From a virus: a DNA stretch of 64,000 nt. Shown here piece after piece: positions 15,613 through 44,198 of this stretch (within the stretch, counting starts at the first letter, position 1; the number at the start of each line of letters is the position of its first letter). The notes under the pieces are model-generated. The model was given only the letters and a program-made list of their open reading frames with translations. It ran no database searches and was not told the origin of the DNA. The DNA is taken from the IMG/VR virus record IMGVR_UViG_3300028706_000004, one strand, 5' to 3'. The position numbers and the translations under genes were made by a program.

Positions 15613-15710
15613 TTTCCGTAAAATAGTTTACGGAAACTGCAGTTCTTATGCTTGTTACTTACACGGTAGAAGCTTTCTGTCGCTTATTATGTATTGACGG
15701 AGGTTTCAAT

Positions 15711-22732: not shown

Positions 22733-25700
22733 ATGACCGAGTTCTCTCCAAAAAAAAGAACCTACCTCTCAGCAAGAATTCGCCGTAGTCGGCGAGATTT
22801 AGAAGCTGCTGGGCTGGACTTTCTTGAACGCAGAAACATTCTTGCTGCACAGCCAACCCTTAACGCCCAAATTGTAGTTAAGGCGCTTGATGGCAGCATC
22901 GGAGATTCCCCTGAACAGGAAAAAGATAAGTCCAAAAAACGCACAGCCGGTTCAGGAGTTAAAGAAATAGAGCCCGAGGTTCGTTACGACCCCAAGGGTG
23001 TTCGTGATCCCGGACAAGTTTTCAAACTGCATGTCACTGCTCGTGACCTCAAAACAGGTCAAGATAATTTCGGGTGGATTGATCCGCCTAAAGCAGTGCC
23101 GAAAGAAGAACAGCGCTCCAATATGGCTGACGCTATGCAGTGGCGAGCAACCCGACCTCAGATTCGGATACGGACTTACGATCAGGACCCAAGAACGGGT
23201 CAACCAATCATTGAGACTGAGGAAGAAATTAAGGTCAAAGGTCTCGGCAGAACCCTCAAAGACACCCTTCCGGGCCAAAGCCTTGGGGGACGTGCCGCCA
23301 GCGGCCTTGGTCTCATTGTTGACGCTTTAGGGAAGTTTCGTTGCCCCCCCGGTACCCCAGCAGCCAACCAGTTCACCGACGAGTTCGGCACAAACTGTTT
23401 TTCACCTGTGGAGGTATTACGCGACACAGTCCGGGGTCTTGTCAATAGTCTCAGATCCGGTAGAGGTCGAAGCTGGTCATTACCCGGTCGAGGCGACAGC
23501 GAAGCGGAACAGCTGAGATCCAATATCGCAGAACGGCGCGCAACCGCAGGTAAGGCCGGACAGCTTATTGGTAATACTGCATCGATTGAAGCAGCCTTGA
23601 TTGAACGCAACACCGTTATTCAATCTTTAATGGATCAGTACGGCATCTCGGCTGGAGACGAACTAAACGAGGATATGTGGTCATTGTTGGAAGCGATGAC
23701 CGACGTAGATACCGGTGATTTCCCTGATCTGGAATGGAAGGGATTGTTCACCGGCATGTTCGGAGAAGAACTCTGGGACGACAATCTTACGATGCGTCAA
23801 AATTTGGAAAAGATGCGTGCGACAGTACGCGAAGACGTATTCAGTTTCATGGGTGCACAAACCAAAACGGGCGCACAAGCAATCCGGGATGCGTATAGAG
23901 CCAAAGACCCCACTGCGATGGAAATGGTTGACGGTCTTGTTGGTCGACACGAATCAGCGATGCGAGGCTTCTTAGGTTCGACTCTTCACGAGTTCGGAGA
24001 CGATCCGAGAGCCATGAGCGGTCTCAAAAAGATTTCTTTCCGAGCCTACAACCCAGATTATGACGACTTCCAAAGCTATTGGGGTACCGAAGGGGAATGC
24101 ATTCCCCTCTGGGAAGGTACCGGCACCGGAATGGCTACCAAACTCGAATTCAACGCTACTGCCATTGCCCTGCGACCGTTTCAAGAGGGTGGACTAACTC
24201 ATGAGGGTCCAGATGGTCGACCGAAACTCGTACAGGTTGACGCTGGAGGTACCTTTTCAGCATCAGTAACAGACGCCGAGAAATGGGCGGCAATCGCAGA
24301 CTTTCTTACACATACTGAAAAAATGGAATACTGGCATAAACAATATGCAAATGACCTTACTGCTGCTGCTCACGGCGGAAGTCTCGAAGCCTTTTCCATG
24401 CATGTCGGATACCACGAACTTGCGCACGTTAAACAGTATCAACAGATTGCACAACGTGTGTTGGAAGCTTATGAGCGTGATGGTCAATTCTCGATTTACA
24501 AAAGGGATGGCACTGGACTCGAATCATTAACTGCACATCCTTCTGAATGGACAAACGAACAGTTCGTTATGGCCGTTGTCTCCACATTCCAAGATGCGCT
24601 TCCACCCGGCACCACTACCGACTTTCCCCCGATGGACATGGTCCAATTTGAGGGAAGCATGCTGCATCTTCTCGCAGGACAATATTACCAAGACATGGTT
24701 CAAGGTTTCCTGCAAGCAACCTCTGGTGGTTATGCAGAAGATATTACTCCGGGTCAATATGTGAGTCCTTTGGACGCCAGAGGACTACCTGTTCACAATT
24801 CGGCGAAAGCCCACCTCAACCTGTTGTTTCTAGAGGGAACAGCTGAACTAGCGGCTCTTAAACGAACCGGAGGCATCGCAGGCGACGAACTCAATGAAGT
24901 TCTTGATTGGATGGACGCAGACATAGCAGACGTTGTCTACGGGATTCCAGAGGTTGACGTTCCGTTTAAACCCGGTTCCATTGTTCCCGACACTGACATG
25001 GGTGAAGCGCCTTGGGACACTCCTCTCGAACCGGGCGAAGTTATGACGCCATCAGGCATCATCATTCCAACTAGTGCTGTGAAAAAGATAGAAGCAGCAG
25101 CGGCGAGGAAGAGGCAAGAACGCCAACTAACTACGGAGAAGCGAAAGCTCGAAACTGCTAGACGATTGCGGCATCGAACAGAAATACACAGTTGGGGCAG
25201 CGGCGGGGACGGTGAAATCAAAACTGCGTCCGATGGAACAAAATATGTTTGGATCGGAGCATTAAGTGGTGAGGGCGAATGGCAGGTGCTAATTGACGAC
25301 CTGTTCGACCCAGCAGTTTTGGTGGAGCTCATCGACAACGATATTTTGCCAGCCGTCGGCCCGTTTGAAGCATGGAATGGACAGTGGTTGGGCGGCGCTG
25401 AGGGCGGTATGCGCTCTAGGCGAGAATTGGGCCAATTCGACAACGGACCCAGAGTCGGAAAGTTTTCCGGAGAAACACACGAAGAACCAGACGGCTCAGT
25501 CTGGGAGTTTCGCCCTACTCTTCGGGATCGTCCAGAAAAAGGTGGTTTCTGGCGTGATATGACAGACCCTGCAAACCGACGAGAAATAGCCGAACGCGCC
25601 ACACGCAGACGCCAATTGGAGGCTCAAGAGGGTCGAAGCATGGGACGACTTGCTCGCCCGGGGGCTGGAAGCGAATGGGAAAACATTGTCCGGAGGGGCG

Positions 25701-28700
25701 ATGGCGGGATGCGTTCCACAAGGGCCACTGTGGGACAAAGTTTCACTCCCGAGGAGATCAACGATCACGTGATACTCGACGACCTAGAGCTAGAGCTGGA
25801 CAGATTAGACCAAGCGCCCCCCACCATTTTGGGGCGGTTGCGTCAAAAGTTTGGTGGCCACAAAGGGCTGGAACAACGCAAACAAAGACACCGAGAGAGT
25901 ATTGCAGCCGTTAAGGAAGCATTAGCTGAAGGTAGGTTCGTCGAAAGTCTCGACGATTACATGAACCTTAGCGACAAAGAGAAGCTGAAGTTTTTCCATG
26001 GCAAACCTCTCGTCGTCACCGCTGATCAGACAGAACTTGCAATGAGAATCATTTTAGATAATTACCGCCTTAACCCTGAAGAATCTGATTCCGACAAACT
26101 CATGCACGTCAAGATTGTTCCAACTGATTCAGTTACCGGCGAAGAGATCCAGTCGCTACTGCATAAGGAATTCGCCGAGGCATTGGAAAACGGAATACCT
26201 ATTGCGGAGGCATTGGAAAACGGAAACGACGTTGAAGCACAGCGCCTAATCGCACAGTTGGAAGCTACTAATACCCCATTCATGCTCGGCAAGGAACATT
26301 ATGACTTATGCAAGGTTTCCGTAGCGGGCTCAAACATGTTCTGCTATGACCACGAAGGCATATTACGAAATAGTATGCCTCAGTTCAGTGGTCCTGTCTG
26401 GGATTTCGACACAGAAGAACACCAGAAACAGTATGAGGATGCTCTTACCAAGCTCGCCAACGCAGCCGGTCATGTCGACCCCTCAACGGATGAATATGAA
26501 GACTGGTTCAAGTCCACGGACGGCTGGACCGCTAGACGAGAAGCTCACGAGGAAGTGTTGGATGCAGGGGGCGCGGCGACAAAAGCCGCCACACTCTGGC
26601 ACGACCAGTTCGACGAAAAGGCGAGACAACTTCGGCTGGAAGGTAAACTGTCTGAGGAAGAAATCCTTGAAGAAGCAGCGAAAGCTACCCAGTTCGGAGC
26701 AGATACCACTCGCGAATTAATCGATCGACTGAGGGCAGACGGCGTTCGAGTCGAGGGTGGATTTGGCAAAGCAGATTTGCGGCCCGGCGATGATCTCGAA
26801 ACCGGCACAGAGAACCCAATCAAAAAGGCTTTGTTGCACCTGAAGGCCAGTCAGAACGAACTAATTGGACCTAAGGTGATGAAAGAAGCCCGGAAGGCCA
26901 CCATAAAGCAACCCGATGGGACATATATCAAGAACCCGGATCACTGGCTCTTCAAGGGATTCGAAGGTTCTTCAGATCCGATTTTGGTTACCGATGACGG
27001 ATTCATTCTTGATGGTCATCACCGCTGGGCGATGCTCGTAGCGGTTGCCAGCCTGACGGGAGACGAAGACGAAATCTTGGGCCACAAGAACGTTGTCGTT
27101 GTTCATATGCCAGTCAACGAGGCTCTTGGTTACGGGGTGGCCTTTGCCGACGATATGGGCATGCAGCGGGCACCTGCTGGACCGGATGAAGCTGCCCCAC
27201 ACCCTTCGACGCTTCCAGACGTACCGGGGACATGGGCGAAACGACAGGCTGAGCTTAGAGAACAGAAAAGTTCACTGCCTGAAAGCCCGATCGAAGAACG
27301 TGGAATGCGATCTTCCCGTCGCATGGATGGCGTGTTTGACGAAATTACCCGAGTCGGAAAATTCCATGGAGAGACTCACGAAGAACCAGATGGTTCAATC
27401 TGGGAATTCCGTCCCACTCTTCGAGACAGACCCGAACAAGGCGGGAATTGGATTGATCTTTCTGATCCCAGCATGCGGCGACATATGGCTGACCGTGCAA
27501 GAAGACGACGTATTGAGGAATCTGAGTCCGGCGGAAGCATGGGGCGGCTTGCACGACCGGGAGCCAACAGCGAGTGGGACGACATCACTCGTGGCGGGAT
27601 GCGTTCTCAGCGCAGAGAAATAGAACTGCGAAACATGGAACGTGAAATCCAAACCGCAGTAGGGCGCGAACGGGCTCTCGAAACAGAACTCCTTCAGCTC
27701 CGAGAAGATGAAGATGGTTTCGTTATTACCCGTGAAGAATTTGATAATTCGGTTGCCGAAATATCCGTTGAGCGAGAAGCGTTGAAGGAACGTAAGCGGC
27801 GGCTCCAGCAGCAGCACTCGATCCTTAAGCGTCATCGTGACAGGGGTTCCAGAACGGGCATGCGGTCGATTCGTGTGAGAAAGCAAAGTGACAACCCCGG
27901 CGCAGCAGAAACGATGACCGTCCGCAACGCCGACTTGGCTGAAGCGATTCCGGACTCAGCGTTCTCCGCTCCCAGTGGTTGGGGAAGCAACTATGCAACT
28001 GATCGCACTTCTAGAGCCTTACCGCCGATCCAAAGTCGCAGTAGGGCACTTTCGGATCACAATGAGAAGCTCAACGACTCTTTGGATGATCTAATGCATG
28101 TGCCGACTCTAGAATCTGACCGTTACTCCGAAGATTGGAAATACCTACAGGGACCAAATGGTTCATTTTTGGACATCGACCCAGAGGTTGCTGAGTTTCT
28201 ATCCAACCACGAAAAAGACGAAGTTAGTGAGACTATCGCCAAGGCTGCTGTTCAATTCCACCGAGGATTCGACCGGAGACCAAGAGTCCTGCTCGATTCG
28301 GACGAATTCGAAAACCTATTAGAAACAGGCAGCCACTCAAGGCCAGATATTCCATACGGCGAAAACAGTGTTGCGGATTTACGCATGGATTATGACCTTC
28401 GTAACGGTTTTGACACAAATACCCCGGCGTCTCAGCGACCAATAAGTGGGCACCTGTATCACGCCATGGATGATGACCAGATATCCGAAAGCCTCGATGC
28501 CATTGACGGACCATTAATGGAGCGACTCCCTGACTTCTGGGATTCAGAAGGAACAGCCCCTTGGGGAGATCCAGCAGCAATGGGTGGAGACATCGACATC
28601 GTTCTGCGCCCAGAGGTATCTGATAGAACCCATTACGGAACTGGCGATGCCATGAGTCGTGGAGCTATCCCGACACCAATGAATTCAAACGATGCTGACG

Positions 28701-29338
28701 AAATTCTGGCCGCACACACCCCCCGCTGGAATGGCGGGCAAGAAGACGGCCCCTTCAACAACACCGTGAAAATGCACGACCTGTTAAAAGCGGGAACAAC
28801 TGGAAACTACAGAGACCTCTCCCCCGACGGCGAGCACCATGAAGCACAAATCGCCGGGGGTATCGATATGGACGACATCGAGTTTGTCCGCTACCCGGTC
28901 AACAAGCTCAATTGGCGCAATCTCAAACTCAGTGATGCAGATACAGGGAAAAACGACAAATCCGCAGCGGCTAGGTTGCGCAGCGCAGGATTTAGTGACG
29001 CCGAAATTGGTTACTTCTACGACGCCATAAGCGAAGGACGAGTTACAGGTCTACGAAATGTCAACTGGCTTCGCCAACATCTTGCAGCCAAAAAAGCACA
29101 AGAACGATTCGATCGTCTTGGAGTTGGTGTCAAATTCACAAACCCAGACGGAATAGACCTTATGAATGTTGATTCGTTCATGAGTAATCTTCCGGGAGCT
29201 ATTGCGAGCACAACACCTGCAGATGTTTTGCGCAAACGAATACATCTTGAAATCGCAGAGCGTGCAGCTGAACTACTTCAAGATATTCGGAAAGAAATGA
29301 AGCCAAACCGCAACGCCTCCGCAGGAGTTTTGGTCTGA
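22733..29338 (+). CDS. Giant polyvalent head-module protein (zincin HExxH, ParB-like, DUF3626-like domains, 5 GMRS sites)
   Basis: 2201 aa; HELAH...EGTAE; ILDGHHRW; RPISG...DIVLRPEV..RT..GD...EAQIAGG. Confidence 0.85.
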   Translation: MTEFSPKKRTYLSARIRRSRRDLEAAGLDFLERRNILAAQPTLNAQIVVKALDGSIGDSPEQEKDKSKKRTAGSGVKEIEPEVRYDPKGVRDPGQVFKLHVTARDLKTGQDNFGWIDPPKAVPKEEQRSNMADAMQWRATRPQIRIRTYDQDPRTGQPIIETEEEIKVKGLGRTLKDTLPGQSLGGRAASGLGLIVDALGKFRCPPGTPAANQFTDEFGTNCFSPVEVLRDTVRGLVNSLRSGRGRSWSLPGRGDSEAEQLRSNIAERRATAGKAGQLIGNTASIEAALIERNTVIQSLMDQYGISAGDELNEDMWSLLEAMTDVDTGDFPDLEWKGLFTGMFGEELWDDNLTMRQNLEKMRATVREDVFSFMGAQTKTGAQAIRDAYRAKDPTAMEMVDGLVGRHESAMRGFLGSTLHEFGDDPRAMSGLKKISFRAYNPDYDDFQSYWGTEGECIPLWEGTGTGMATKLEFNATAIALRPFQEGGLTHEGPDGRPKLVQVDAGGTFSASVTDAEKWAAIADFLTHTEKMEYWHKQYANDLTAAAHGGSLEAFSMHVGYHELAHVKQYQQIAQRVLEAYERDGQFSIYKRDGTGLESLTAHPSEWTNEQFVMAVVSTFQDALPPGTTTDFPPMDMVQFEGSMLHLLAGQYYQDMVQGFLQATSGGYAEDITPGQYVSPLDARGLPVHNSAKAHLNLLFLEGTAELAALKRTGGIAGDELNEVLDWMDADIADVVYGIPEVDVPFKPGSIVPDTDMGEAPWDTPLEPGEVMTPSGIIIPTSAVKKIEAAAARKRQERQLTTEKRKLETARRLRHRTEIHSWGSGGDGEIKTASDGTKYVWIGALSGEGEWQVLIDDLFDPAVLVELIDNDILPAVGPFEAWNGQWLGGAEGGMRSRRELGQFDNGPRVGKFSGETHEEPDGSVWEFRPTLRDRPEKGGFWRDMTDPANRREIAERATRRRQLEAQEGRSMGRLARPGAGSEWENIVRRGDGGMRSTRATVGQSFTPEEINDHVILDDLELELDRLDQAPPTILGRLRQKFGGHKGLEQRKQRHRESIAAVKEALAEGRFVESLDDYMNLSDKEKLKFFHGKPLVVTADQTELAMRIILDNYRLNPEESDSDKLMHVKIVPTDSVTGEEIQSLLHKEFAEALENGIPIAEALENGNDVEAQRLIAQLEATNTPFMLGKEHYDLCKVSVAGSNMFCYDHEGILRNSMPQFSGPVWDFDTEEHQKQYEDALTKLANAAGHVDPSTDEYEDWFKSTDGWTARREAHEEVLDAGGAATKAATLWHDQFDEKARQLRLEGKLSEEEILEEAAKATQFGADTTRELIDRLRADGVRVEGGFGKADLRPGDDLETGTENPIKKALLHLKASQNELIGPKVMKEARKATIKQPDGTYIKNPDHWLFKGFEGSSDPILVTDDGFILDGHHRWAMLVAVASLTGDEDEILGHKNVVVVHMPVNEALGYGVAFADDMGMQRAPAGPDEAAPHPSTLPDVPGTWAKRQAELREQKSSLPESPIEERGMRSSRRMDGVFDEITRVGKFHGETHEEPDGSIWEFRPTLRDRPEQGGNWIDLSDPSMRRHMADRARRRRIEESESGGSMGRLARPGANSEWDDITRGGMRSQRREIELRNMEREIQTAVGRERALETELLQLREDEDGFVITREEFDNSVAEISVEREALKERKRRLQQQHSILKRHRDRGSRTGMRSIRVRKQSDNPGAAETMTVRNADLAEAIPDSAFSAPSGWGSNYATDRTSRALPPIQSRSRALSDHNEKLNDSLDDLMHVPTLESDRYSEDWKYLQGPNGSFLDIDPEVAEFLSNHEKDEVSETIAKAAVQFHRGFDRRPRVLLDSDEFENLLETGSHSRPDIPYGENSVADLRMDYDLRNGFDTNTPASQRPISGHLYHAMDDDQISESLDAIDGPLMERLPDFWDSEGTAPWGDPAAMGGDIDIVLRPEVSDRTHYGTGDAMSRGAIPTPMNSNDADEILAAHTPRWNGGQEDGPFNNTVKMHDLLKAGTTGNYRDLSPDGEHHEAQIAGGIDMDDIEFVRYPVNKLNWRNLKLSDADTGKNDKSAAARLRSAGFSDAEIGYFYDAISEGRVTGLRNVNWLRQHLAAKKAQERFDRLGVGVKFTNPDGIDLMNVDSFMSNLPGAIASTTPADVLRKRIHLEIAERAAELLQDIRKEMKPNRNASAGVLV

Positions 29339-32300
29339 TGAAAGCTATACACGTTGCCAATACGGGCGATAGTCGAATTTATTATCTATTGGAATCAGAT
29401 AACGACTCTACCGGTGTAGTGGTCAAACCCGATTCTCCTCCAACATTCGTCAACTTTTTTGCATACGTCTCTAAAAAACCGCGCATACAGCGTCTTATGG
29501 ATTCAGATTTTCATAAATTTCTTTGGACCGGCAACAAGGGAAGTCTAAAACCTCGCTGGGAACACGTCTTTATTGACCGAGTTGCCGAACCGGCTGATTT
29601 ATTGGTTGGCGTAAATGTGATTAGCAAGTTTAAAACAGACGACGGGCCTAGTCGTGTCCGACAAATGGAAGAGAAGGCCAACCGAGCTATCGAATATCGA
29701 TCGCTGATATCCGCAGGGCTCAACGAAAAAGCTTTTGCGAGAAGTGTCGGCAGGATGGCTGGTCGTGCAGCTACGGGAGCCGTCAGAGGTTTCCGTAGAG
29801 GAATTCGGTTTGACAGAAATGCTCATGACGGTGATTTGGATGGCTTTATTCAGGAAGGTACCCAGTGGGCTAGAGCTGCTACGCCGTCAGTACGAACGAA
29901 TCTAACTCCGGATGGTCTTAGGTCAACAAACCAACTACCACGGAAACGGTTCATGAAAGATGAGCCGCCAAATCCCACAACCTTGTTTGACGCTTCACCA
30001 CAAGACCTCTATGTAGCCAAGAATCGTTATTACAGCTGGAAGAAAACAGAAGCAGCCTTGTCTGCCCACCTCACAGGCAACGACCCTGAAGAGCTCTTGC
30101 AAAGTTGGATCGATTTAGAAAATGAATTGAGTGAAGCCTTTCTTGACGGGCGTCCCATACGAACCACTGACGATTTTCGAGAAATTGCAGCTCAACTTCA
30201 CAGCGGATTCGGACCCGGCCTCAATCAAAGAATGACAATTCGTTACAATCAGAATGGTGACCCAATAGGGCGTAAATATGACAATCCGGGGGGCAGCTAT
30301 TTCGACTTGATCACCCCCGATCGGCAAGGCGACGAAGAGTTTTCTCTGTATGAAAAATATACGGCATTAACTGTAATGAGGAATTTAAGAGATAACCCTG
30401 ATCTTCAAAACCACACCTTGGAAATTGCACATGAGGACAATCGAACCCCCGGCAATCCAGTCATTCAAGGACCGCCTGCTATTGCGGGTCAAGCGTCCAG
30501 CAAGCAAGGAAAGAAGTGGAAGGTCAACAAAATAGCTCTACAACTATTGAGAGCTACCACGGGTACACGGGAAGAACGAAACAAACGGTTCTCAGAACGC
30601 CTTGACGAAATGTTCGAAATTGATACAACGCCATCTCGTCACACAAAACCAAGAATCACTATCGGCTTACGCAAAGAAAAAGATCATCCGCAACTACTTG
30701 ACTTTGAGCTCGGCTTAGATGCTGAAGAGAGTTCAAAATGGGGTCACAACACCGCCACTACTGCTCTGATTGCCCTAGCAGCTCACCTTGACGATGTGCC
30801 CGAAGGTGAACAGGCAGCAGTTATCAAACAAGGTAAAGCAATATTTGGAGCCACGATTGCAACACATGAATTCTCTGGACATGGAAGTCATACTGCAAAT
30901 ATTAAATCATTTGCAGACAAAGATTCAGGTGGTGAAGAAAACGCATTAAAACGAGCATATGAACGAATAAAAGATCGTATAGCAAAAAACCCCATCGCTG
31001 ACAAAACCGCGCTAGATCTGGATAGCGAACATATAGATAAAACCAGCACTGGTGGTTATGCCTTGGCCCATGGAGCATATGGCCCAAGGGTGATTCTCGC
31101 CGTGGATAGAGCTGCTGCAGATTTATCAAACCACGGCGATATCCGAGGTGTTCTAAGTGTCGACCCTGACACTATGGGGGTCGGGCAATGGATGCGTTAT
31201 CTCGACATTATGGAAAAGACGGGTTCCAATAGGGCTCAGCGGCTTATTGAATGGATGGGACAACCCATCATGGATGGTGACGGCAACGCATACACAGCCA
31301 CTCCCGGACTCGCCCAGTATTTCAACGCATTAGCAGGTGAGGCTGCCCTTATTTGGCTAGACGTTGACCTAACCATCTCCCCGGGTGAAGAATTAACTCT
31401 TGCACATGTTTTGTACGGGATGTCTCCCAGCTTCTATTTCGGAAAATACCAATTGCTTTCCAGCGAATCCGCTGCCCATGGTGTCACCACATTGACAGAT
31501 CATCGAAAGGGTAAATATCTCAGCTACAAGCCAAGAGACGGAACTGCTACTGGAGAGAACTGGATCAGGGTTGATGACAAAGCACTATTTATACTCGACG
31601 ACGACAATGACATAGGACCGTTAGACGCCGTACCGGATAACGTGTTGGCTCAGGGTGGCTGGTATAAACGTGACAACGGTATCGAGCTACTCGACCAAGG
31701 AGTTTTACCCGCACCTACGGTACTTAGGGAAAGCGGAATACCCGGGTTCAAGTTTCGCGCCACGGACGACAACGCAAGCGTTATACGCGAGTCGGCACGA
31801 GTGTCGCCAGAAGATGTTGCACCGTTACTCGATGCTCATGCAGTAGTTAATCGTATTTTGGCTGATGAAAAATCTTCCATTCCGGTTGCCCCACGTCCTG
31901 TCACCAATGTACAAACTGCTTTCAAAGATCCATTCAACCCTACAGACCTAGAAAGACGTGCTGAAAGAAAGCGATTGAATGATGAAGAAGTAAAAAGGAG
32001 TCAAAACTATTTGGCCAAGCTTCTTAAAGTAAGATTTAATAAAATCAAAGAGTCGAAAAGCGAAGTTAGTTCAACAGGACTACCGGTTACTGAATTCGTT
32101 TCAAGTAAAAGCCCTGAACAGAGAGTCGAACTAAGACAAAAATTAGTTGACCAACTACTTGCTTCTCTCGTCTATGACCACAAGTTCATTGATAGAAGTC
32201 GAATCAATCAAACCCAGAGTTTCGGTGACCCTAGGGGGCAACGTGGCATAGATGTCATGGGAGACCATCGCCTCTTTGAAGAGGGTGGAGCACTCGAAGG

Positions 32301-32661
32301 AATTATTTCTTCCTTAGTCGGAACCCTTATTCAAGATGGCAGCTTCTGGGATGGCTTAAATGATACAGACATCGACCTGCTGAGGAATTTATCAGATAAT
32401 CTTGGGTATAGGGTTTATGGCAGTTACGCGGGTGCACATACATCACATGCCCTTCTCAACGAGCTAACAGGAGGAGGGCGCCACGAACTGGTAGCAGAGT
32501 TTATGACTCTGATGACTACGGGAATGGATTTCCCAATTTGGGGTCCGAATGGCCGTCGAGAACTTACTCCTGCGGAAGTGAATGCATTAACCCGCTTATT
32601 TAAATGGCTTTCCCCTAAGGGAACGCCAAAAATACGATCGGGAGGAACTACATATGTCTAA
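29338..32661 (+). CDS. Large head-module protein with DGDxDG motif and metallopeptidase-like region
   Basis: 1107 aa; TGATG coupling; FDRNAHDGDLDGFIQEGT; HEFSGH; GSYA...ELVAEF. Confidence 0.8.
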   Translation: MKAIHVANTGDSRIYYLLESDNDSTGVVVKPDSPPTFVNFFAYVSKKPRIQRLMDSDFHKFLWTGNKGSLKPRWEHVFIDRVAEPADLLVGVNVISKFKTDDGPSRVRQMEEKANRAIEYRSLISAGLNEKAFARSVGRMAGRAATGAVRGFRRGIRFDRNAHDGDLDGFIQEGTQWARAATPSVRTNLTPDGLRSTNQLPRKRFMKDEPPNPTTLFDASPQDLYVAKNRYYSWKKTEAALSAHLTGNDPEELLQSWIDLENELSEAFLDGRPIRTTDDFREIAAQLHSGFGPGLNQRMTIRYNQNGDPIGRKYDNPGGSYFDLITPDRQGDEEFSLYEKYTALTVMRNLRDNPDLQNHTLEIAHEDNRTPGNPVIQGPPAIAGQASSKQGKKWKVNKIALQLLRATTGTREERNKRFSERLDEMFEIDTTPSRHTKPRITIGLRKEKDHPQLLDFELGLDAEESSKWGHNTATTALIALAAHLDDVPEGEQAAVIKQGKAIFGATIATHEFSGHGSHTANIKSFADKDSGGEENALKRAYERIKDRIAKNPIADKTALDLDSEHIDKTSTGGYALAHGAYGPRVILAVDRAAADLSNHGDIRGVLSVDPDTMGVGQWMRYLDIMEKTGSNRAQRLIEWMGQPIMDGDGNAYTATPGLAQYFNALAGEAALIWLDVDLTISPGEELTLAHVLYGMSPSFYFGKYQLLSSESAAHGVTTLTDHRKGKYLSYKPRDGTATGENWIRVDDKALFILDDDNDIGPLDAVPDNVLAQGGWYKRDNGIELLDQGVLPAPTVLRESGIPGFKFRATDDNASVIRESARVSPEDVAPLLDAHAVVNRILADEKSSIPVAPRPVTNVQTAFKDPFNPTDLERRAERKRLNDEEVKRSQNYLAKLLKVRFNKIKESKSEVSSTGLPVTEFVSSKSPEQRVELRQKLVDQLLASLVYDHKFIDRSRINQTQSFGDPRGQRGIDVMGDHRLFEEGGALEGIISSLVGTLIQDGSFWDGLNDTDIDLLRNLSDNLGYRVYGSYAGAHTSHALLNELTGGGRHELVAEFMTLMTTGMDFPIWGPNGRRELTPAEVNALTRLFKWLSPKGTPKIRSGGTTYV

Positions 32662-33073
32662 ATGGCTCAAATTCTCTGACAAAATTCCACCTGCTGAATT
32701 TTTCACAAAAAATGCCGAGCGGGGAGAATTGGAAAAACCTTCAATTCAGGATTGGCAAAGCTTGTTAGAACGAGCGCTCGGTTATAAACCAAACCAGTGG
32801 AATGGGATGAGTCATAGTCGTGACGAACTGGTTGGGATTCTTCGTCAATTAGAAGATGGGTCTGATCCACATATTGATAACCGTCGAAACTCTATTGAAG
32901 AACGCATTGAACGTTACGAGCGCAGCAAACAACGGACAAGAGATGAAAGAGATGAGCAGCTAGAGCAGGTTGTCGATGTTGGAAGTTTCTTATTTCCTCC
33001 TTGGCATACGCATAGAGGAAGAATCACTTCATCATTGAATCCTGCAAACTTCGCAGATCCCGGACTGAATTGA
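32654..33073 (+). CDS. Small hypothetical protein coupled to the upstream large gene
   Basis: 139 aa; start overlaps the upstream stop. Confidence 0.65.
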   Translation: MSKWLKFSDKIPPAEFFTKNAERGELEKPSIQDWQSLLERALGYKPNQWNGMSHSRDELVGILRQLEDGSDPHIDNRRNSIEERIERYERSKQRTRDERDEQLEQVVDVGSFLFPPWHTHRGRITSSLNPANFADPGLN

Positions 33074-33099
33074 ACGTAAACTATTATAGGTGACTACAC

Positions 33100-33744
33100 A
33101 TGACAACTGACAGTTACGACATCAAAGGGCCACAGGACGTTCTACTCGATCTCCCTCAAGAGAGATTGACATCGATTACCCGTGGACGTGGACCGAGACG
33201 AGGCAATCTGGAGAGATTGCTTAGATATTGGCGCCCAATCATGAAAAAGCCCGGCGGGTTTACACGCTGTCGTGTCATTCTTAAAAATCACCCTGAGTTA
33301 TACCCACTGGAAAGAATTTGCGCGTGGCTCCATCACGAAACCACCGGTAAATGGCCCAACGAAGGGTGTCATCATCCGGGCATGAAGAATTGTAAAGGAA
33401 AACTTCGGAAGCTGGGATGGACTGATGCCGAATGGAGCAAGCGAATACGCAAGCGCTTCAAGAAACGTAAAAAAGGTTTCGATGAGGCTTGGGATCAGGA
33501 AGACGTATTTTTCGGAGACTTCTTAGAGTCTAAGAGCTCTTATACGACTATAGGGTATAATCCTGTAGTAACTACAAGTGACCTCAAGCATGCTTCAACC
33601 GTTTTAGCTGATTTCGTTGTGATGGAAAAGGACTTCACGTCCTACCTCCGAGATCACAACAATTGGGAATTAGTCGGAGAAGGCGACGACGGCGACGAAT
33701 GGGTTACAGATTTCAGCGAAGCTAAGGACTGTGGGTGCGAATAA
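33100..33744 (+). CDS. Head-module protein with L.RYW...GGF.RC...CAWLH..TG.WP domain
   Basis: 214 aa; motif recalled from actinophage head-module/MuF-type fusion proteins. Confidence 0.7.
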   Translation: MTTDSYDIKGPQDVLLDLPQERLTSITRGRGPRRGNLERLLRYWRPIMKKPGGFTRCRVILKNHPELYPLERICAWLHHETTGKWPNEGCHHPGMKNCKGKLRKLGWTDAEWSKRIRKRFKKRKKGFDEAWDQEDVFFGDFLESKSSYTTIGYNPVVTTSDLKHASTVLADFVVMEKDFTSYLRDHNNWELVGEGDDGDEWVTDFSEAKDCGCE

Positions 33745-33746
33745 AT

Positions 33747-35687
33747 ATGGCGACTTCCTACACCTACACGAAGGAATTGGGCTGCTGCGACGGTTTAGAA
33801 GTGCAGGTCAAACGAACAATTTTACGAAAGCTTGACGACACCATTCCTTCGGGTCTAATCCGACATGCACGCGCATCTGACGAAACTATTGGCGAATATA
33901 AAGCTTTATCTCATAGAAATGGGAATACTCGCCAGTACGACATCAGCGTAACTACCAAAGCGGGCTTAGTTGGATCAGGTTCTCGTCTTGGACAAGCAGC
34001 TCAGGCTGCGGGTTCAATCATCACACCCGGAAACATTTCCAGAGTTCGAAGTCCCTTACGTTCCGCCGGATGGCGGGCAATCACTCCCGGTCTCCCCGGA
34101 GGTGGACGAGGCATTCGCAAACGTGGACGAGCACACCGATGCCCAGAGGGCTACCAATACGGTGGTCGGTTTACTGATAATCAACTATCCACTTGCGGAC
34201 AACAACTTTTCGATATCCCATCTGCTATCGGTGCAACCATTGCCGCCATTCGTAGGGCCGCTGCTGGTGCACCCGCAGGACCCGAAGGTGAAGTAATTCG
34301 TGGACGCTCAGGCCAAGACGTTCTAAAAAGCCGTAGGCCAGATATTCCCCGCGTCGGCAACGACGACCGCCAAGAACGCATTCGTGCTACTGGAAAAATC
34401 ATAGAAGCCATGGGTAAGCCCGACATAAACACGGCTCGGCTCGTCCGTCGAGATGGGTTCCAGTTGGAGCCGGTCGTCAGTCCTGCCGTCCTTAGAACCA
34501 TCCCAGACAACAGGGATATGGAAGGCGCCACCTACTTAATGAATCTCACATCCGTTGATGGAATGGGCGGCGAAGAGTTGGGTCTCCTGTCCAATACGGG
34601 AGTTACTAATATCTCTTACGTTCTTCCTGACGGATCTTCTCTTTCTATTGAAAAGGTTCGAGGGCTCACTGTCGGTGAACGTAGAAAACTGGGCCGCACG
34701 GTTAATGCCGCCATGAAGAAAGACAATTCTAAAGATCCTGCGGCCAGACTAAAATTTGTCGACGAGGAGACGGGAACAGGTATCGCATACACGGAGGACT
34801 GGAAAGGATCAGCTCGTTCCGTTGCGGATGCCCTCAAATCCAAGCCAGACAAAACACCCACAGTGGAAGCTGAAGTTCCTGAAGCTGAAGTGCCCGAAGG
34901 TGTTGGCGACAAAATTGGTAACGTCGATGACGCTGTAACCCACATCAATGGTGGGGGCAGTCTTGCTGAAATTGATCCATCTATTTTGCAGGCTGCGATG
35001 CGAAAAGCGGGTACGAAACGACCCGGAGGCATCTTTGAAGTCGGCGATAATCGTTACCTTATGCAGTCTTCGAAAACCGATTTCGACCATTTACACGTTG
35101 CTACGGCAGCAGAAATCCAAAATCATCTAGGTTTGGCAGCGTTCCCCCCAGCGTTTACGGGGAAGGGTGGCAAGCGGCGTGGCTACGTTCTCGCTGCCCC
35201 ATCTATGGATACTGATCGGACATTCGATGATGTAGATCCAGAAGACGCAGTACGCATGCTCTTATCTGACTTAATTCTCGGAGTCAACGATAGACCGCCC
35301 ACTGCCGTAGGGAAACTAGGCGAAGCAACAGTGCCGACACATATACCGTCTGCACTCAAAGATTTGGACGACATCAGCATACAAGAAAGAATCGAAGAAA
35401 GCATTTCTTCGATGAAACCACTTTCGAATGAAAGCATATATTCTTCGCATTACCAACAATTACGAGAAGCCCAACAGGAAGCATTTCGCAACGAACTAGA
35501 ACGCCTCCTTGAAAGAGCTCGTACATTCAATTTTACTGATTACAAGGATCGCCTTTACCGCGACGGTGCTTTATCTGCAGCCGAAAAAACTCACCTAAAT
35601 ATTATTCAAACAATTGTTGAAGCTCGTATCCAGACACTTGCTGCTGCCTACAACGCGATTCTCGCCCGCTTGGACGGTTCCCAATGA
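33747..35687 (+). CDS. Head-module protein with RCPxG..FTD..C motif and degenerate HipA/PI3K-like kinase C-terminus
   Basis: Start reassigned to MATSY; ...AEI..HLGL..P...DLILGVNDR... Confidence 0.75.
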   Translation: MATSYTYTKELGCCDGLEVQVKRTILRKLDDTIPSGLIRHARASDETIGEYKALSHRNGNTRQYDISVTTKAGLVGSGSRLGQAAQAAGSIITPGNISRVRSPLRSAGWRAITPGLPGGGRGIRKRGRAHRCPEGYQYGGRFTDNQLSTCGQQLFDIPSAIGATIAAIRRAAAGAPAGPEGEVIRGRSGQDVLKSRRPDIPRVGNDDRQERIRATGKIIEAMGKPDINTARLVRRDGFQLEPVVSPAVLRTIPDNRDMEGATYLMNLTSVDGMGGEELGLLSNTGVTNISYVLPDGSSLSIEKVRGLTVGERRKLGRTVNAAMKKDNSKDPAARLKFVDEETGTGIAYTEDWKGSARSVADALKSKPDKTPTVEAEVPEAEVPEGVGDKIGNVDDAVTHINGGGSLAEIDPSILQAAMRKAGTKRPGGIFEVGDNRYLMQSSKTDFDHLHVATAAEIQNHLGLAAFPPAFTGKGGKRRGYVLAAPSMDTDRTFDDVDPEDAVRMLLSDLILGVNDRPPTAVGKLGEATVPTHIPSALKDLDDISIQERIEESISSMKPLSNESIYSSHYQQLREAQQEAFRNELERLLERARTFNFTDYKDRLYRDGALSAAEKTHLNIIQTIVEARIQTLAAAYNAILARLDGSQ

Positions 35688-38600
35688 GACAGTTCGCTAT
35701 TATCAAAGACGTTAGTTCGGATAAACTTTTTGCAATTATTGTTAAAGATGATGATTTTACTGTCTGTCATGGTGTCCATGCTGCCGGTAAAAAGTGGGCT
35801 GAAAGTTACAACAAGGGTTTAACCAAATCCATTTATGACGATCTTCAGCCGGGAATTTCCGTTGGATCGTTCGCGCCCGTAAGAGCGACAACACAAGCTT
35901 TGATTGATGAGGCAACCGAAGGGAAGCCCGTTCGTTTTCCTGATCACTCACAGCTTGTATATGTCAAGTCAGTTAACTACAGATATGCCGGAGAGATTCC
36001 GCAAGTAAAAGATGCTGGGCTATCAAATCTGACAGATAAAGATTTCTTTATTGGAGCAGACTATAAGGGATCAGCTTTTCGTGCCGATTCTGCAAGACTT
36101 TCACTTTTAGCCAAAGCACGCTTAGGACATTTCGGAGCCGATTCTAAAGGTTTTAATTTCACCGAAAAAGGAACAGATCAGAAGGCCCTAAACGAAGAAT
36201 TATTTCAAACTGCTCGGGGGTCCGGGAATGCACGTCGTGCAGCTAAAGCAGTACTTTTAGAGAAACATTTAAACCTAGAAGAACATCCGGGGTATCTCGG
36301 AACAAAAGAACATTCGTCATCTATCCGTACAAAAGCTAACCGTCTTGGTCGCAGACTCGCCCCGGGAGGCGGCGGAGGCAGGGGTCGCGGAGGTATTCGC
36401 AAAATCGGACGGTCAATGAAAGACCCGTTTGATCCAAACGCTTGGGACGGAGATAATGATGGGATAGTTCAGGAGGGCACCGTATGGGAACGTCCCTCAA
36501 TACCGGGCGTTAACACAAATCTTCCGGGCCAACGTCATACCCGAACCAAGCCTCGTAGCTTCCCACGCGATGACGCGGACGGTGTCGAATTTAGATTGCG
36601 CAATCGTCGTGAAGAGAACCGTGCCCAAGACGAGATTTTAAGTACTCCGGTTGGAGAGGTTATTGAAGATTTCCCCGAAGCAACCGAAGCTCTCAGAAAC
36701 ACACTTTCAGGATTCTCTGAAGATGATGACATTTGGGAAACCCCACTAAGGGATATCACGGATGATGGAGAATATTTTGGTGAAGATGATTTAGATCGAC
36801 TTCTTGATATTGCTGTACCGCGACGCCGAGAAGGCACTACTGACAGCTTCTATCGCGATGAACAAGGTATGCGTTCTCAGCGTCTACAGCCCGGGGACAA
36901 GGTCACCGTTCGCCACAGGGGCGAGGACACTGAGGGAACTATCGTCCGATTGGGGCAAGGCGGAGCGAGCGGCGTAGGCACTGACTCCTATGTAGTTGAT
37001 GTCGGTGAGCGGCAATCACTATGGAAACGCTCAGACGAGATTCTGGGCAGCCCGGGCGGCATGCCCTCTCAACGAGGCATGCGTTCTGAGCGATATGACA
37101 TCACACGAGATGAAGCTGGCAAATGGCGTGTCATTGATACGGGCAACAGAAACATGCGGCTTCCCGAAGAATATGACAACCGTGAGGAAGCTTTAAGAGA
37201 AGCGATACGAAGAGATAACCCTCGTGGCGGCATGCGCTCCCAGCGTCGCCCATATGCAGGAACGATTCCAGACCGGTCAGGCGAAACTCGACAAGAACGA
37301 GAGAATCGCAGAATGCGAGGCGAGTTCGACGAAATGACCCGAGTCGGGCGAGCCGCCAGAGAAACCCATGAAGAGCCAGACGGTTCAATCTATGAATTCC
37401 GTCCAACTCTTCACGACAAACCTGAACGGGGTGGCAATTGGATTGACATTACAGACCCCGGCCAAAGATCTGAAATGGCTAGGCGTGCTACGGAAAGGCG
37501 CCAACACGAAGCCCAAACGGGTACGAGCATGGGGCGGTTAGCGCGACCGGGTGCTGGTAGTGAATGGGATCGAATTACAAGGGGTGGAATGCGCTCTAGG
37601 GCGCGCGACGCTTCAGTAGATCGTGCCTCTCAATTGCAGGGCATGCGGTCAAGTCGCAGACGACGCCGAGGTCAAGCTGAACCCGGACTTGATCGTCACT
37701 CAGACATTGATGGTCAGATTTGGGAAAACCTTACCGATGCTGAAAGAGCGCATGTCGGAACGGCGATTGACACAGAAATGCGTAGACGAATGCACGGACT
37801 CGCATGGAATGACATGAACGGCATAGATCCTCGCAAGCCAAAACAAAAAAAGCGTTCAGAAATGACCCCCGAAGAAGAAATGGAAGCAACCTTCCACGTC
37901 AACCCCCTCGGAGGGATCGTAAAACAGTATTTCGATCAAGCAATCAGACCAGACTTTGAAAAAGACTATGAAGGTGACGAGCTTGCCCAAAAACTTAGGG
38001 ACTATATTTTCACCGACGCCGATATCGACACCATCGAAGCCGCGATAGAAAGTCAAATCGAAGCGACTGGCGACGCGACCGACAAGGCTGCCGACCAGCT
38101 CAAGGACCAGTTAAGGGAAATTCGAATCTACCGAAACATGGTCGAACAAAGCAACAACGGCAAAGACCCTGACGCCTTCCGATTCCTTGAGCATCTTACG
38201 CCGACACAGCGTGCCCGAATCTACAACCGTGCAAACGGTGCTGATAAAGATCGTCTAGAAACAAGTAAAGCTTCTTGGGGTCTCAGTAAAGGCAATCGCA
38301 TCAATTCGACTATCGGCAGCACGTTCACGGAACGTCAAGCCGCTATTGATGCTGTTGAGCCCGGCGTTAGGCGCCGTGCGGGAGAGTTCTCCCGATCAAT
38401 GGCACAACGTATTTGGGCTCCAAACCCGAACAATGCCTATCGTCGTGCGCTTAGAAAAGCTCGACGCGGAGGGGCGGGAAGTTCTCTTCCCGGTTTCCGT
38501 CGTGAAGAGGATAAAAGATCAATAGTTGCCCGCCGTGTCGCTCAACTGCGACGCAAGTTGCGGGTCGTTAAGGGTCGTAAAGGTATCCAAGGTGCAATTA

Positions 38601-39586
38601 ATGCTTCTGAAAAGAAACAAATCAAGAAAGCAGTCGATTTCGACGCAGATGGCAAGTTGGTTACAAGCGACGAAGGTATCGCACGTCTCGGCAAAGCCTC
38701 CAGAGCACTACTTGGCGACAAGTCGGTTCTGAAAGATGTCAGAATGAAGGGTCGTGGCGGTAAGGGCACAGACGGAGCTAGCGAAGATGAGGTCGAGAAG
38801 ATACTCAATCAGAACCCAGAAATGGCTGTCATTTGGGACGCTATGGGCATGAATGATTTGCCGGTTGTTGTAGACGATGACAACTTCGAAGCCCTAATTG
38901 ATGCTGGCCATCCCGTCATAGGTCGAGGACACGGAAGCGCTTCCAATGCAACCGATTATCTTGATGACGAATTGCGTTTCCTCCCCGGAGGAGGCGGAGA
39001 AGCCTCAGGCAAGGGCGAATACTGGTCAACCGGTCAAGGCAGTTGGGGTAGTTGGCAAACCGTAGAAGGAGGCAACACGGTTGCTGTTCTTACACCCAAT
39101 GTTCGCCGCATGGACGGAGACACCCTAGACGCCGAATTTACCGCTAATAGATCCGTTAGTCGGGCATTCGAGCTTGTACGAGCAACCTATCCCGGAGATG
39201 AATTGGAAAAAGCGGACATTGCCGAAGTCGTCTCCAGAATGGATGCTGAAATAGCAAAAATAACAGATCTTGCCGAAGGTGCCCCTATTTGGGAAACCGA
39301 AGTTGGTCAACTCTGGACACACTTGTTGGATTCGATCCGCACCAGCGGCAACCCCGACTCTTTGAATGCCATGTTGCTGCTTAACAAAATTAATAACACC
39401 AGCAACGGCAGAAACCTTATTGCCCCCATCTTGGGTTATGACACAATCCAGTCGGGTAGCGTAGAGTTGGTGATGAACCGCAGTGCCGTCATCACCCTAG
39501 GCAGAACCCTTGGTTCTTCAGGATTGAGTCAATTCTTCAAGCAAGCATCAGATGTACGCAGCGAAGGCAGAAGGGCTAGAGCATGA
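35684..39586 (+). CDS. Large polyvalent head-module protein (DGDxDG motif, 5 GMRS sites, C-terminal ART-like domain)
   Basis: 1300 aa; ATGA coupling; FDPNAWDGDNDGIVQEGT; LPVVV...RGH...GKGEY. Confidence 0.82.
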   Translation: MRQFAIIKDVSSDKLFAIIVKDDDFTVCHGVHAAGKKWAESYNKGLTKSIYDDLQPGISVGSFAPVRATTQALIDEATEGKPVRFPDHSQLVYVKSVNYRYAGEIPQVKDAGLSNLTDKDFFIGADYKGSAFRADSARLSLLAKARLGHFGADSKGFNFTEKGTDQKALNEELFQTARGSGNARRAAKAVLLEKHLNLEEHPGYLGTKEHSSSIRTKANRLGRRLAPGGGGGRGRGGIRKIGRSMKDPFDPNAWDGDNDGIVQEGTVWERPSIPGVNTNLPGQRHTRTKPRSFPRDDADGVEFRLRNRREENRAQDEILSTPVGEVIEDFPEATEALRNTLSGFSEDDDIWETPLRDITDDGEYFGEDDLDRLLDIAVPRRREGTTDSFYRDEQGMRSQRLQPGDKVTVRHRGEDTEGTIVRLGQGGASGVGTDSYVVDVGERQSLWKRSDEILGSPGGMPSQRGMRSERYDITRDEAGKWRVIDTGNRNMRLPEEYDNREEALREAIRRDNPRGGMRSQRRPYAGTIPDRSGETRQERENRRMRGEFDEMTRVGRAARETHEEPDGSIYEFRPTLHDKPERGGNWIDITDPGQRSEMARRATERRQHEAQTGTSMGRLARPGAGSEWDRITRGGMRSRARDASVDRASQLQGMRSSRRRRRGQAEPGLDRHSDIDGQIWENLTDAERAHVGTAIDTEMRRRMHGLAWNDMNGIDPRKPKQKKRSEMTPEEEMEATFHVNPLGGIVKQYFDQAIRPDFEKDYEGDELAQKLRDYIFTDADIDTIEAAIESQIEATGDATDKAADQLKDQLREIRIYRNMVEQSNNGKDPDAFRFLEHLTPTQRARIYNRANGADKDRLETSKASWGLSKGNRINSTIGSTFTERQAAIDAVEPGVRRRAGEFSRSMAQRIWAPNPNNAYRRALRKARRGGAGSSLPGFRREEDKRSIVARRVAQLRRKLRVVKGRKGIQGAINASEKKQIKKAVDFDADGKLVTSDEGIARLGKASRALLGDKSVLKDVRMKGRGGKGTDGASEDEVEKILNQNPEMAVIWDAMGMNDLPVVVDDDNFEALIDAGHPVIGRGHGSASNATDYLDDELRFLPGGGGEASGKGEYWSTGQGSWGSWQTVEGGNTVAVLTPNVRRMDGDTLDAEFTANRSVSRAFELVRATYPGDELEKADIAEVVSRMDAEIAKITDLAEGAPIWETEVGQLWTHLLDSIRTSGNPDSLNAMLLLNKINNTSNGRNLIAPILGYDTIQSGSVELVMNRSAVITLGRTLGSSGLSQFFKQASDVRSEGRRARA

Positions 39587-42863: not shown

Positions 42864-44198
42864 ATGAGCGAGGACACCTCCCGTCTTTCCGAGTTGCAAA
42901 CCGCAATGCGGACGAAGATGGATACAAACAAGGAGATCGCCGATTCTTTCGAAATCGAAGACGGCGTTGTCCAAGTCGATGCAGACCAAAAAGCTGCGTT
43001 CGACACAAACATGAAAGACATCAAAGAGATCAAAGGTCTCATTGATGGCATTCAGGAGATGGAAAAAGCTCGCGAGTGGGGTTCACAGCCCTCGACCGAG
43101 TCCGTCGCCGCAGAAGCTGCAGCCGAATGGGCAAACAGCAGCGAAGTCAAAGAGGCTGTTCAGCAGTACCGCACTGTCGGTGAGGCTTTTCTAGACTCTG
43201 CTGAGTTCAAAGCTCTTGCCAATGGCGCTGCTGGCGCGAACATGCCTGCTCCGTTCAGTGTCCCCGGAAGCCTTGCTTCCAAAGACCTTTACGGCCAGAA
43301 GGATGTTTACTCCGCTTTGCCCACGGGCACTCCGGGTTCTTTCGGCACCATCCAGCGTGACCCAATCGTCATGCCCCCACAGCGTACAAAGCGCGTTCGT
43401 GACTTGTTCCCGAGCCGCACAACCAACGCTGCTGTCATCGAGTACTTCCGGATGTCCGGCTTCACCAACAACGCTGCTGCAGTGTCTGAGCGCTCAGGTA
43501 CGCCTGAGGCGTTCACCGCCAAGCCGCAGTCGACCTTGGCGTTCGTCGGCGAGCAAGCACCCGTGCGCACCCTTGCACACTGGGAAGCTGCTCACCGCAA
43601 CGTGCTGGCAGACGAGCCGCAGCTCCGGTCGATCATCGACAACGAGCTTCTTTACGGCCTTCGCCTTCAGGAAGATGCACAGATCATCAGCGGTGCCGGT
43701 ACCGGTGAAAACCTCACTGGTATCACCGCCACCACTGGTATCCAGACCTACAACTGGTCTGCAGGTGCATTCACTCCAGTACCCGACACCAAAGCGGACG
43801 CCATCCGGCGTGCGGCAACCTTGTCGTTCCTCGCATACTACGAGCCCACAGGCGTCGTGATGCACCCGAACGACTGGGAAGACGTTGAGCTCACCAAAGA
43901 TTCCAACGGCCAGTACTTGGTCGCGGTTTCTGTGGCGCTCGGCGGCGAGCCTCGCGTGTGGCGACTCCCTGTCATTGAGACTCCGGCCATCGCTGAAGGC
44001 ACTTGTGTCGTCGGCGCATTCGGTACCGGTGCACAGCTCTATGACCGTGAGCAGGCCAGCATTCGGATCAGTGAACAGCACTCGGACTTCTTCATTCGCA
44101 ACGCCATCGTGGTGCTTGCGGAGCAGAGGCTCGCTCTTGCTGTGAAGCGCCCTGAAGCGTTTGTGAAGGTTACCTTCAACAACGCTCCGACTTCCTAA
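42864..44198 (+). CDS. Major capsid protein (HK97 fold)
   Basis: Coiled-coil delta domain; VRDLF, LRSIIDNELLYG....ED.Q...G.G, VMHPNDW, GLPV..T, F..N...V.AE.R. Confidence 0.95.
   Translation: MSEDTSRLSELQTAMRTKMDTNKEIADSFEIEDGVVQVDADQKAAFDTNMKDIKEIKGLIDGIQEMEKAREWGSQPSTESVAAEAAAEWANSSEVKEAVQQYRTVGEAFLDSAEFKALANGAAGANMPAPFSVPGSLASKDLYGQKDVYSALPTGTPGSFGTIQRDPIVMPPQRTKRVRDLFPSRTTNAAVIEYFRMSGFTNNAAAVSERSGTPEAFTAKPQSTLAFVGEQAPVRTLAHWEAAHRNVLADEPQLRSIIDNELLYGLRLQEDAQIISGAGTGENLTGITATTGIQTYNWSAGAFTPVPDTKADAIRRAATLSFLAYYEPTGVVMHPNDWEDVELTKDSNGQYLVAVSVALGGEPRVWRLPVIETPAIAEGTCVVGAFGTGAQLYDREQASIRISEQHSDFFIRNAIVVLAEQRLALAVKRPEAFVKVTFNNAPTS

Follow-up and report, generated by a model that had tools for sequence, protein, structure and literature searches.

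Within the 64,000-nucleotide window analyzed here, which belongs to a 91-kb contig of an uncultured marine phage (IMG/VR record IMGVR_UViG_3300028706_000004; ~61% complete), a sequence module occurs three times in two giant genes of the head block, and every copy is bounded on both sides by the tetrapeptide GMRS. The three copies are old paralogs of one orphan module of about 95–100 residues, called the cassette below. Judged from the sequences of this phage and its relatives (a small sample of some twelve assemblies, a number of which are close to each other), it is very probable that the cassette is truly repeated and that a protein-level motif, G-[M/L/I/V/F]-R-S (G-Phi-R-S), bounds swappable modules. 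The full explanation proposed here, in which the motif-bounded modules belong to polyproteins that would be diced at the motif by a virion protease, is assigned a probability of roughly 0.6, cleavage included.

The two open reading frames concerned, encoding P0001 (2201 amino acids (aa)) and P0002 (1300 aa), are present as an earlier note on this DNA described, and the cassette ends that it reported are exact, with GMRS encoded at 25406, 25706, 27302, 27596, 37229, and 37586 (Table 1). Its statement that each copy starts right after a GMRS is correct for the GMRS ends but not for the core of copy C, which begins ~22 residues further in, as the note had itself indicated by placing that core from 37325. 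Aligned over ~100 residues, the copies share 68–71% amino acid identity and 60 invariant columns, with a base identity of just 62–66%. The proportion of synonymous differences (pS) among the copies is 0.71–0.80, corresponding to saturation, and the replacement distance (dN) is 0.27–0.30. The ratio of dN to the synonymous distance (dS) is 0.12 for the sole pair of copies with a finite dS and ~0.1 overall. Copy C and the orthologous copy C' differ by a dS of 0.135 and a dN of 0.015. Because synonymous sites are saturated and dN is low, the copies are old paralogs under purifying selection and not recent duplicates, which agrees with their earlier description as old and maintained; the orthologous copies of relatives are conserved too. 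Fourteen DNA runs, which come from 11 or more marine studies, contain all or nearly all of the 2.4-kb stretch with copies A and B, and contigs from three runs other than the likely source read through each cassette into its unique flanks and show 0 differences. Since independent marine metagenomes carry the region without difference, an assembly artefact, which the earlier note had allowed for, is excluded.

GMRS is found 13 times in the window, always in frame and within four head-block giants, against 0.09 copies expected from composition, and an unbiased count returns it as the most enriched tetrapeptide of the seven large head-block proteins. The 91-kb genome encodes 22 sites of the general form G-[MLIVF]-R-S; five head giants, together 7,253 aa long, account for 20 of them and the remaining 21,196 aa for 2. 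The portal and capsid proteins have zero. At 14 of 21 sites the second residue after the motif Ser is Arg. The site codons vary freely (GGC, GGT, GGG, or GGA; CGN or AGG; TCN or AGC), and hence selection acts on the peptide and not on the DNA. Homologous giants from other assemblies carry 5–10 sites each, compared with 0.1–0.3 in shuffled sequences, and a relative with 54% identity in the conserved C-terminal domain likewise has 13 GMRS (186-fold enrichment). Two distant syntenic relatives favor other forms of the motif, GLRS (8 copies) in one and GLAS together with GLRS (6 each) in the other, and such lineage-specific forms fit co-evolution with a trans-acting reader. The motif is at times doubled (GMRSGGMRS, GMRSQRGMRS) or frames peptides of just 5–28 residues.

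A cassette hidden Markov model (HMM) identified nine full copies in six proteins, two each in P0001, P0006, and P0003 and one each in P0002, P0009, and P0013. All nine are flanked on both sides by G-[M/L/F]-R-S, with GFRS at one flank, and one variant copy has an extra GLRS downstream of its GMRS end. The rule that a copy runs from GMRS to GMRS extends in this way to several independent assemblies, and cassette borders in homologs do coincide with G-x-R-S. When 22 giants were cut at the motif and the pieces clustered at a reciprocal coverage of at least 70%, 33 module families were obtained that are shuffled among four paralogous gene families (the protease-fusion, P0001, P0002, and zeta-toxin types) of a clade of uncultured marine phages. 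The cassette constitutes module family M2 and is present in three of the four gene families, the 51-aa module M1 occurs in 13 proteins, and adjacent modules can exchange order (M1–M3 versus M3–M1). In a control on 21 giants, cutting at the motif gave 87 cross-family segment pairs at a reciprocal coverage of at least 70%, whereas an equal number of random cuts gave 0–2 in 20 trials. Cross-family BLAST alignments end at a median of 7.5 aa from a site, compared with 74.5 aa for random placement, and 43% of the ends lie at most 5 aa from a site versus 6.6% at random (maximum 10.7% in 500 trials), values that are somewhat inflated as detailed below.

The same borders appear at the DNA level, where 10 of 12 internal ends of homology blocks in three relatives fall within 6 bases of motif codons. 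Orthologs of P0002 match at their conserved ends with 88–94% base identity and differ in the middle, which reads M22–M1–cassette in P0002, M23–M1–M24–M25–cassette in P0009, and M23–M1–M24–M22–M7 in P0012; in the latter the 182-aa module M7 takes the place of the cassette between the same flanks. For cassette A, the mosaic identity profile shifts at both GMRS. Two relatives carry unrelated sequence in a patch of ~100 bases that ends in a doubled site (PPGMRSGGMRS), the preceding 700 bases being near-identical. Between cassette A itself and its counterpart in two relatives, a single synonymous change is seen in 312 bases, and divergence climbs to ~10% immediately past its closing GMRS. Copy A of the relative P0003 opens with a doubled site (GMRSGGMRS), and the tail of its copy B has an insertion of 48 residues that includes a further GMRS. 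Four independent tests (motif versus random cuts, alignment ends, DNA block ends, and the cassette A mosaic) bear out the earlier proposal that GMRS delimits exchangeable modules: shared modules end at the motif, and so do the stretches of DNA that close relatives have recombined.

The motif is best read as a protease recognition site, because the peptide is kept with free codon choice, is restricted to proteins beside or fused to the head protease, and lies at the edges of folded units, and also because it is sometimes doubled or frames very short peptides, and is swapped as a whole in other lineages. The support for a prohead-protease cut site is indirect: the motif is enriched, keeps to the head block, sits in a flexible context, and varies by lineage. 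In the proposed mechanism, G-[M/L/I/V/F]-R-S, usually followed by x-R, would be the recognition site of a virion protease. The likeliest enzyme would be the prohead protease of the S78 family (HK97-type, with an assemblin fold), which forms one protein with the first giant, although we make this assignment tentatively and put it somewhat short of an even chance. The giants would enter the prohead as polyproteins and be diced there into two to six pieces each; if all 20 predicted sites were cut, the five giants would give 25 products of 2–101 kDa. The Pfam KTSC and zeta-toxin domains begin 8–20 aa past a site. The pieces would be autonomous once cut, and because of this any recombinant joining two sites in frame would still yield working products, which would account for the mosaic structure seen at the motif. 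Cutting would free the cassette as a small peptide with many charged residues, for which a beta-hairpin, an Arg-rich helix, and little other fixed structure are predicted; it may act as accessory cargo or as an ejected effector peptide.

Several points weigh against this interpretation. The mechanistic steps that go beyond the sequence statistics, cleavage among them, are steps that we infer from the sequence. Cuts in three registers, Phi-x-S↓, R/A↓S, and G↓Phi, each fit some known protease habit, and the sequence does not set the scissile bond. In the Phi-x-S↓ register, the hydrophobic P3 and small P1 would match the usual preference of assemblin-fold proteases, an R/A↓S cut would leave a uniform N-terminal Ser, and a G↓Phi cut would suit a zincin. 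The zincin domain of P0001 could instead be the enzyme. Prohead proteases usually cut the capsid protein or the scaffold, yet neither the capsid protein nor the 605-aa acidic protein, the candidate scaffold, has a canonical site. The alignment-end statistics are inflated in that the motif itself aligns and orthologs are not independent. The AlphaFold model of the cassette (7-row alignment) is of low confidence, with a mean predicted local distance difference test (pLDDT) score of 50, so that the fold and any function taken from it are a guess, and a low pLDDT from so shallow an alignment is weak evidence of flexibility and no proof of disorder.

Tested against described domain families, the cassette gave no significant match. 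There was none in Pfam at E up to 10, scans of the whole proteins against PHROGs (E up to 0.001) placed no family over the cassette, the best E in a PDB sequence-profile search was 1.7, the ESM Atlas gave no usable match, and PADLOC on the whole giants returned nothing towards the function of the cassette. An exhaustive HMM search of 1.84 billion representative proteins found the cassette only in its own clade, plus two spurious repeat proteins; the repeats of one of these, a SprT-like protein, gave a 25-column profile-profile match at 50% probability, which was taken as no evidence. The cassette has a mass of ~11.5 kDa and contains ~20% Arg+Lys and ~18% Asp+Glu, and its net charge of only −1 to +3 weakens the idea of a strongly basic DNA-condensing protein. 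In the low-confidence model the invariant H-x-E-P-D-G-S...E-x-R-x-T stretch forms a short beta-hairpin, and there is an Arg-rich helix of 20 residues; the cassette perhaps folds on a target. Its C-terminal tail (MGRLARPGAxSEW) is optional in two variants. Copy number ranges from 0 to 3 among related phages, and the cassette was not found in the fetched parts of the relatives L007, L008, L009, and L012. Because it is absent or replaced in relatives and varies in this way in copy number, the cassette is taken as accessory cargo or an ejected effector peptide and not as an essential part of assembly, with accessory cargo judged to stand only just below even odds.

The main rival to cargo is that the cassette acts at assembly, as a propeptide, a spacer binding scaffold or capsid, or a keeper of the neighboring enzyme domain, and is lost from the head after cleavage. 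This would suit a highly charged segment that is poorly structured in models and stands on both sides of the 532-aa domain in P0001, and there is precedent in T4 and SPN3US, where propeptides of head proteins target them to the prohead and then leave (PMC10052503). We nevertheless consider it unlikely, as the cassette is absent from syntenic relatives, is replaced by an unrelated module in one ortholog, and has different neighbors in every context. When the cassette–532-aa domain–cassette segment (734 aa) was modeled with AlphaFold, the middle domain was confident (pLDDT 70–93) and confidence collapsed at both GMRS; the cassettes do not dock on the domain they flank, and a clamping role was rejected. 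A Foldseek search of this model against the PDB gave no match (best E 0.36). Loading, moreover, could be done by a different shared motif, DGDNDG...PGVNTNLPG.

A second alternative keeps the cleavage and changes the enzyme, with the zincin-like domain of the 2201-aa giant (HELAH) cutting the motif either in the capsid or after ejection into the host. P0001 has an HExxH with a downstream Glu, and variants of HExxH occur in the distant orthologs P0007 and P0008. Thermolysin- and matrix metalloproteinase-type specificity rests on a hydrophobic P1' pocket, which the hydrophobic residue right after the invariant Gly would suit, whereas in the GLRS and GFRS lineages a cut right after the Gly would expose Leu or Phe at the N-terminus, residues that are destabilizing in bacteria under the N-end rule. 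For polyvalent proteins, processing by their own peptidase domains has been proposed, and the same work argues that domains of this type free the other domains (Iyer et al. 2017, J Bacteriol, PMC5512222). The zincin region of P0001, however, matched no Pfam or PHROG peptidase family, and a canonical head protease heads the same block, fused to site-bearing cargo. The S78 protease is favored over the zincin-like domain, which appears improbable as the cutting enzyme.

It is still less probable that the motif remains uncut and that the giants stay intact as beads on a string, with G-Phi-R-S serving as a flexible linker or as a docking or modification motif (contact with the capsid interior, portal, or DNA; modification of Ser or Arg). 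Linkers likewise fall at domain borders and favor recombination, some polyvalent proteins are transferred at full length according to Iyer et al. (PMC5512222), and cleavage is here a prediction. A pure linker, however, would need no four-residue identity across lineages with free codon choice, the motif shifts as a whole by lineage, and doubled motifs and inter-site peptides of 5–28 residues suit cutting better than spacing. Neither a purely DNA-level origin, through a signal for recombination or a recent duplication, nor an error of assembly can be the sole explanation, and both keep next to no probability, since, although junctions between relatives fall on motif codons and several sites share 8–14 bases of microhomology that may aid crossovers, microhomology cannot account for peptide conservation, the variable site codons rule out a DNA signal, the copies share too few bases, distant lineages keep the peptide and not the bases, and independent runs confirm the sequence.

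Among known systems, the polyproteins of picornaviruses (3C) and potyviruses (NIa) are single translation products with a consensus site at every module border, and in MARTX toxins effector modules are freed by a cysteine protease domain and swapped by recombination among variants. Both use other proteases and motifs; RNA-virus polyproteins moreover hold a fixed gene set, in contrast to the shuffled accessory repertoire here, and MARTX proteins are secreted bacterial toxins, whereas capsid cargo is proposed here. A precedent from phage heads is the prohead protease gp245 of SPN3US, whose substrates are head and ejection proteins; it cleaves them behind A-x-E and prefers Ser at P1' (PMC10052503). 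T4 gp21, phiKZ gp175, and SPN3US gp245 recognize a short consensus in many of the proteins that are packaged, some of which have more than one such site (PMC10052503, PMC5694885). The reading proposed here shares with them an assemblin-fold head protease with a short consensus, and a head protease gene is present in the same genome (PF04586, phrog_80). These enzymes, however, mostly trim N-terminal propeptides of separate gene products, whereas polyproteins of 900–2,200 aa would be diced here; the motif is G-Phi-R-S, and the protease belongs to the HK97-type S78 family.

The giants resemble polyvalent proteins. As described, these are likewise giant multi-domain proteins encoded among late or virion genes, with extensive domain shuffling, and delivery with the DNA followed by proteolytic release of domains is proposed (PMC5512222). 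In the phage studied here, at least two effector or processing domains occur in one large polypeptide (Zeta_toxin with DUF3721; S78 fused to cargo), and the giants all lie between portal (13612) and capsid (42864) on one strand, a virion or late-gene location from which packaging is predicted. The effector domains of polyvalent type comprise the zeta toxin and, as signatures, the ParB-like DGHHR and the zincin-like HExxH; the ortholog P0008 additionally matches ART-PolyVal (PF18760) with E 2.4e-6 and 28.8 bits, against a Pfam cut-off of 31.2. The 532-aa module between cassettes A and B (25715–27310), which holds the DGHHR signature, also occurs, with identity as low as 33%, in two polyvalent proteins without punctuation from other phages, P0010 and P0011, the former also having zeta-toxin and 2',5'-RNA-ligase domains and the latter a MuF-like domain. 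In contrast to the present giants, the text of PMC5512222 covered by a term search describes no recurrent punctuation peptide between modules, and that paper reports assemblin-like peptidases as C-terminal only, whereas the S78 domain is N-terminal here. Unlike the polyvalent repertoire, most modules here, the cassette included, match no described domain.

The class of packaged multi-domain polyvalent proteins and the idea of their processing by phage proteases are already known. In open-access papers and preprints we found no description of a punctuation code that delimits several modules per protein, nor of its combination with lineage variation of the code, its position at natural recombination junctions, and an N-terminal S78 domain fused to cargo. 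The processing and rapid evolution of giant polyvalent proteins have so far been a proposal and not a matter of defined sites, and G-Phi-R-S provides a testable code that predicts the cut positions in each giant and explains why recombinants stay functional, with recombination junctions falling on it in natural populations. If cleavage is true, the mature virion proteome of uncultured marine phages would become predictable from sequence, a catalog of small orphan cargo peptides such as the cassette could be screened for host-takeover or anti-defense activity, and the system would show how HK97-fold capsids can be loaded with modular cargo in nature. A more speculative extension, to which we give about one chance in three, is plug-and-play cargo, in which the head protease would read the G-Phi-R-S code, recombination at the code would insert, duplicate, and swap modules, and the result would be an evolvable library of ejected effectors with the cassette as a dosage-amplified member that has a new host target.

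The giants form part of one head block on the plus strand that starts with the portal gene and ends with the major capsid protein gene (Table 1). After the portal come the 1732-aa S78 fusion, the 605-aa acidic protein, P0001, proteins of 1107, 139, 214, and 650 aa, P0002, a 104-aa protein, and the 913-aa DUF3721/zeta-toxin protein. About 27 kb, mostly giant genes, therein occupies the usual place of scaffold and internal head proteins, and the order portal, S78 protease fusion, giants, capsid is kept in the distant metagenomic relatives L007 and L008. The last G-[MLIV]-R-S of the 913-aa giant lies 20 aa upstream of its zeta domain. The capsid protein is 47–48% identical to those of actinobacteriophages (e.g. 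Brevibacterium phage Cantare and Gordonia phage Gray) and alone finds matches in cultured phages, where no homolog of the giants was found. Together with the labels of metagenome-assembled genomes, this similarity of the capsid protein hints at marine Actinobacteria as candidate hosts. When the conserved C-terminal domain was searched against IMG/VR and against JGI metagenome contigs, each gave only one locus.

Table 1. Positions in the window of the cassettes, motif sites, and head-block features (strand as reported)
Feature	Position	Strand	Remarks
Cassette copy A	25406–25717	+	aa 892–995 of P0001, both flanking GMRS included
Cassette copy B	27302–27607	+	aa 1524–1625 of P0001, both flanking GMRS included
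Cassette copy C	37229–37597	+	aa 516–638 of P0002; 22-aa N-terminal extension after GMRS; core from ~37298–37325
Patch replaced in relatives	25300–25402	+	ends 4 bases upstream of the opening GMRS of cassette A
GMRS site in P0001	27857–27868	+	
GMRS site in P0002	36866–36877	+	DNA homology to the gene of a relative stops 2 bases past the site
GMRS site in P0002	37076–37087	+	opens the 51-aa module M1
GMRS site in P0002	37640–37651	+	closes an 18-aa inter-site peptide
Portal gene	13612–15612	+	Pfam PF04860, E 2.7e-47; upstream border of head block; no motif site
1732-aa S78 prohead serine protease–cargo fusion	15648–20846	+	5 G-[ML]-R-S sites; candidate processing enzyme
S78 domain of the 1732-aa protein	~15753–16238 (aa 36–197)	+	PF04586, E 5.8e-11; phrog_80 head maturation protease, E 2.1e-26
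605-aa protein	20891–22708	+	follows protease fusion; extremely acidic
P0001, 2201-aa giant	22733–29338	+	inter-site pieces: 894, cassette, 532, cassette, 87, 490 aa
Zincin-like HELAH in P0001	24413–24427	+	sequence signature only
ParB/Srx-like DGHHR in P0001	27011–27025	+	sequence signature only; region is a weak phrog_2859 match
1107-aa giant	29338–32661	+	one GLRS site (29914), position kept in distant orthologs
P0002, 1300-aa giant	35684–39586	+	inter-site pieces: 397, 70, 51, cassette, 18, 645 aa
WDGDNDG...PGVNTNLPG stretch	36443–36529 (P0002 aa 254–282)		also 1732-aa protein aa 457–522; 913-aa protein aa 211–254
913-aa giant	39900–42641	+	DUF3721 and C-terminal zeta-toxin-like domain (Zeta_toxin PF06414, E 4.3e-10); 4 G-[MLIV]-R-S sites
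Major capsid protein gene	42864–44198	+	phrog_10, E 1.4e-64; downstream border of head block; no motif site

Some further observations concern individual proteins and modules. A WDGDNDG...ERPxIPGVNTNLPG stretch is common to three of the five site-bearing giants, always ahead of the first G-Phi-R-S and within the N-terminal fragment. It makes up the main class of cross-family alignments without motif borders and is a candidate capsid-loading tag that cleavage would separate from the cargo. A module of relatives (L005, P0009 aa 645–710; also in P0012) consists of three tandem 23-residue repeats (TRPLTPEERADHEERFGPGTRDG) and has a weak Pfam match to an Acb2/Tad1 hairpin (E 0.002, below the cut-off). 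The N-terminal part of the capsid protein (aa 1–160) is delta-domain-like over ~130 residues and continues with PGSLASKDLYGQKDVYS, in which L-A-S and V-Y-S resemble the Phi-x-S core and could, speculatively, be a maturation site. The 605-aa acidic protein, which may be the scaffold, has long E/A/P tracts and Cys-rich N-terminal knuckles, with GLRG at aa 5–8 and GMPS near aa 372 in place of a canonical site. Contigs of the marine metatranscriptome run X15 are identical to parts of the P0001 gene (window 25300–26124), which suggests expression in situ, DNA carry-over being possible too. A cluster of five tRNA genes (Leu-TAA, Lys-TTT, Glu-TTC, Gln-TTG, and Arg-TCT) lies on the plus strand at 58900–59291.

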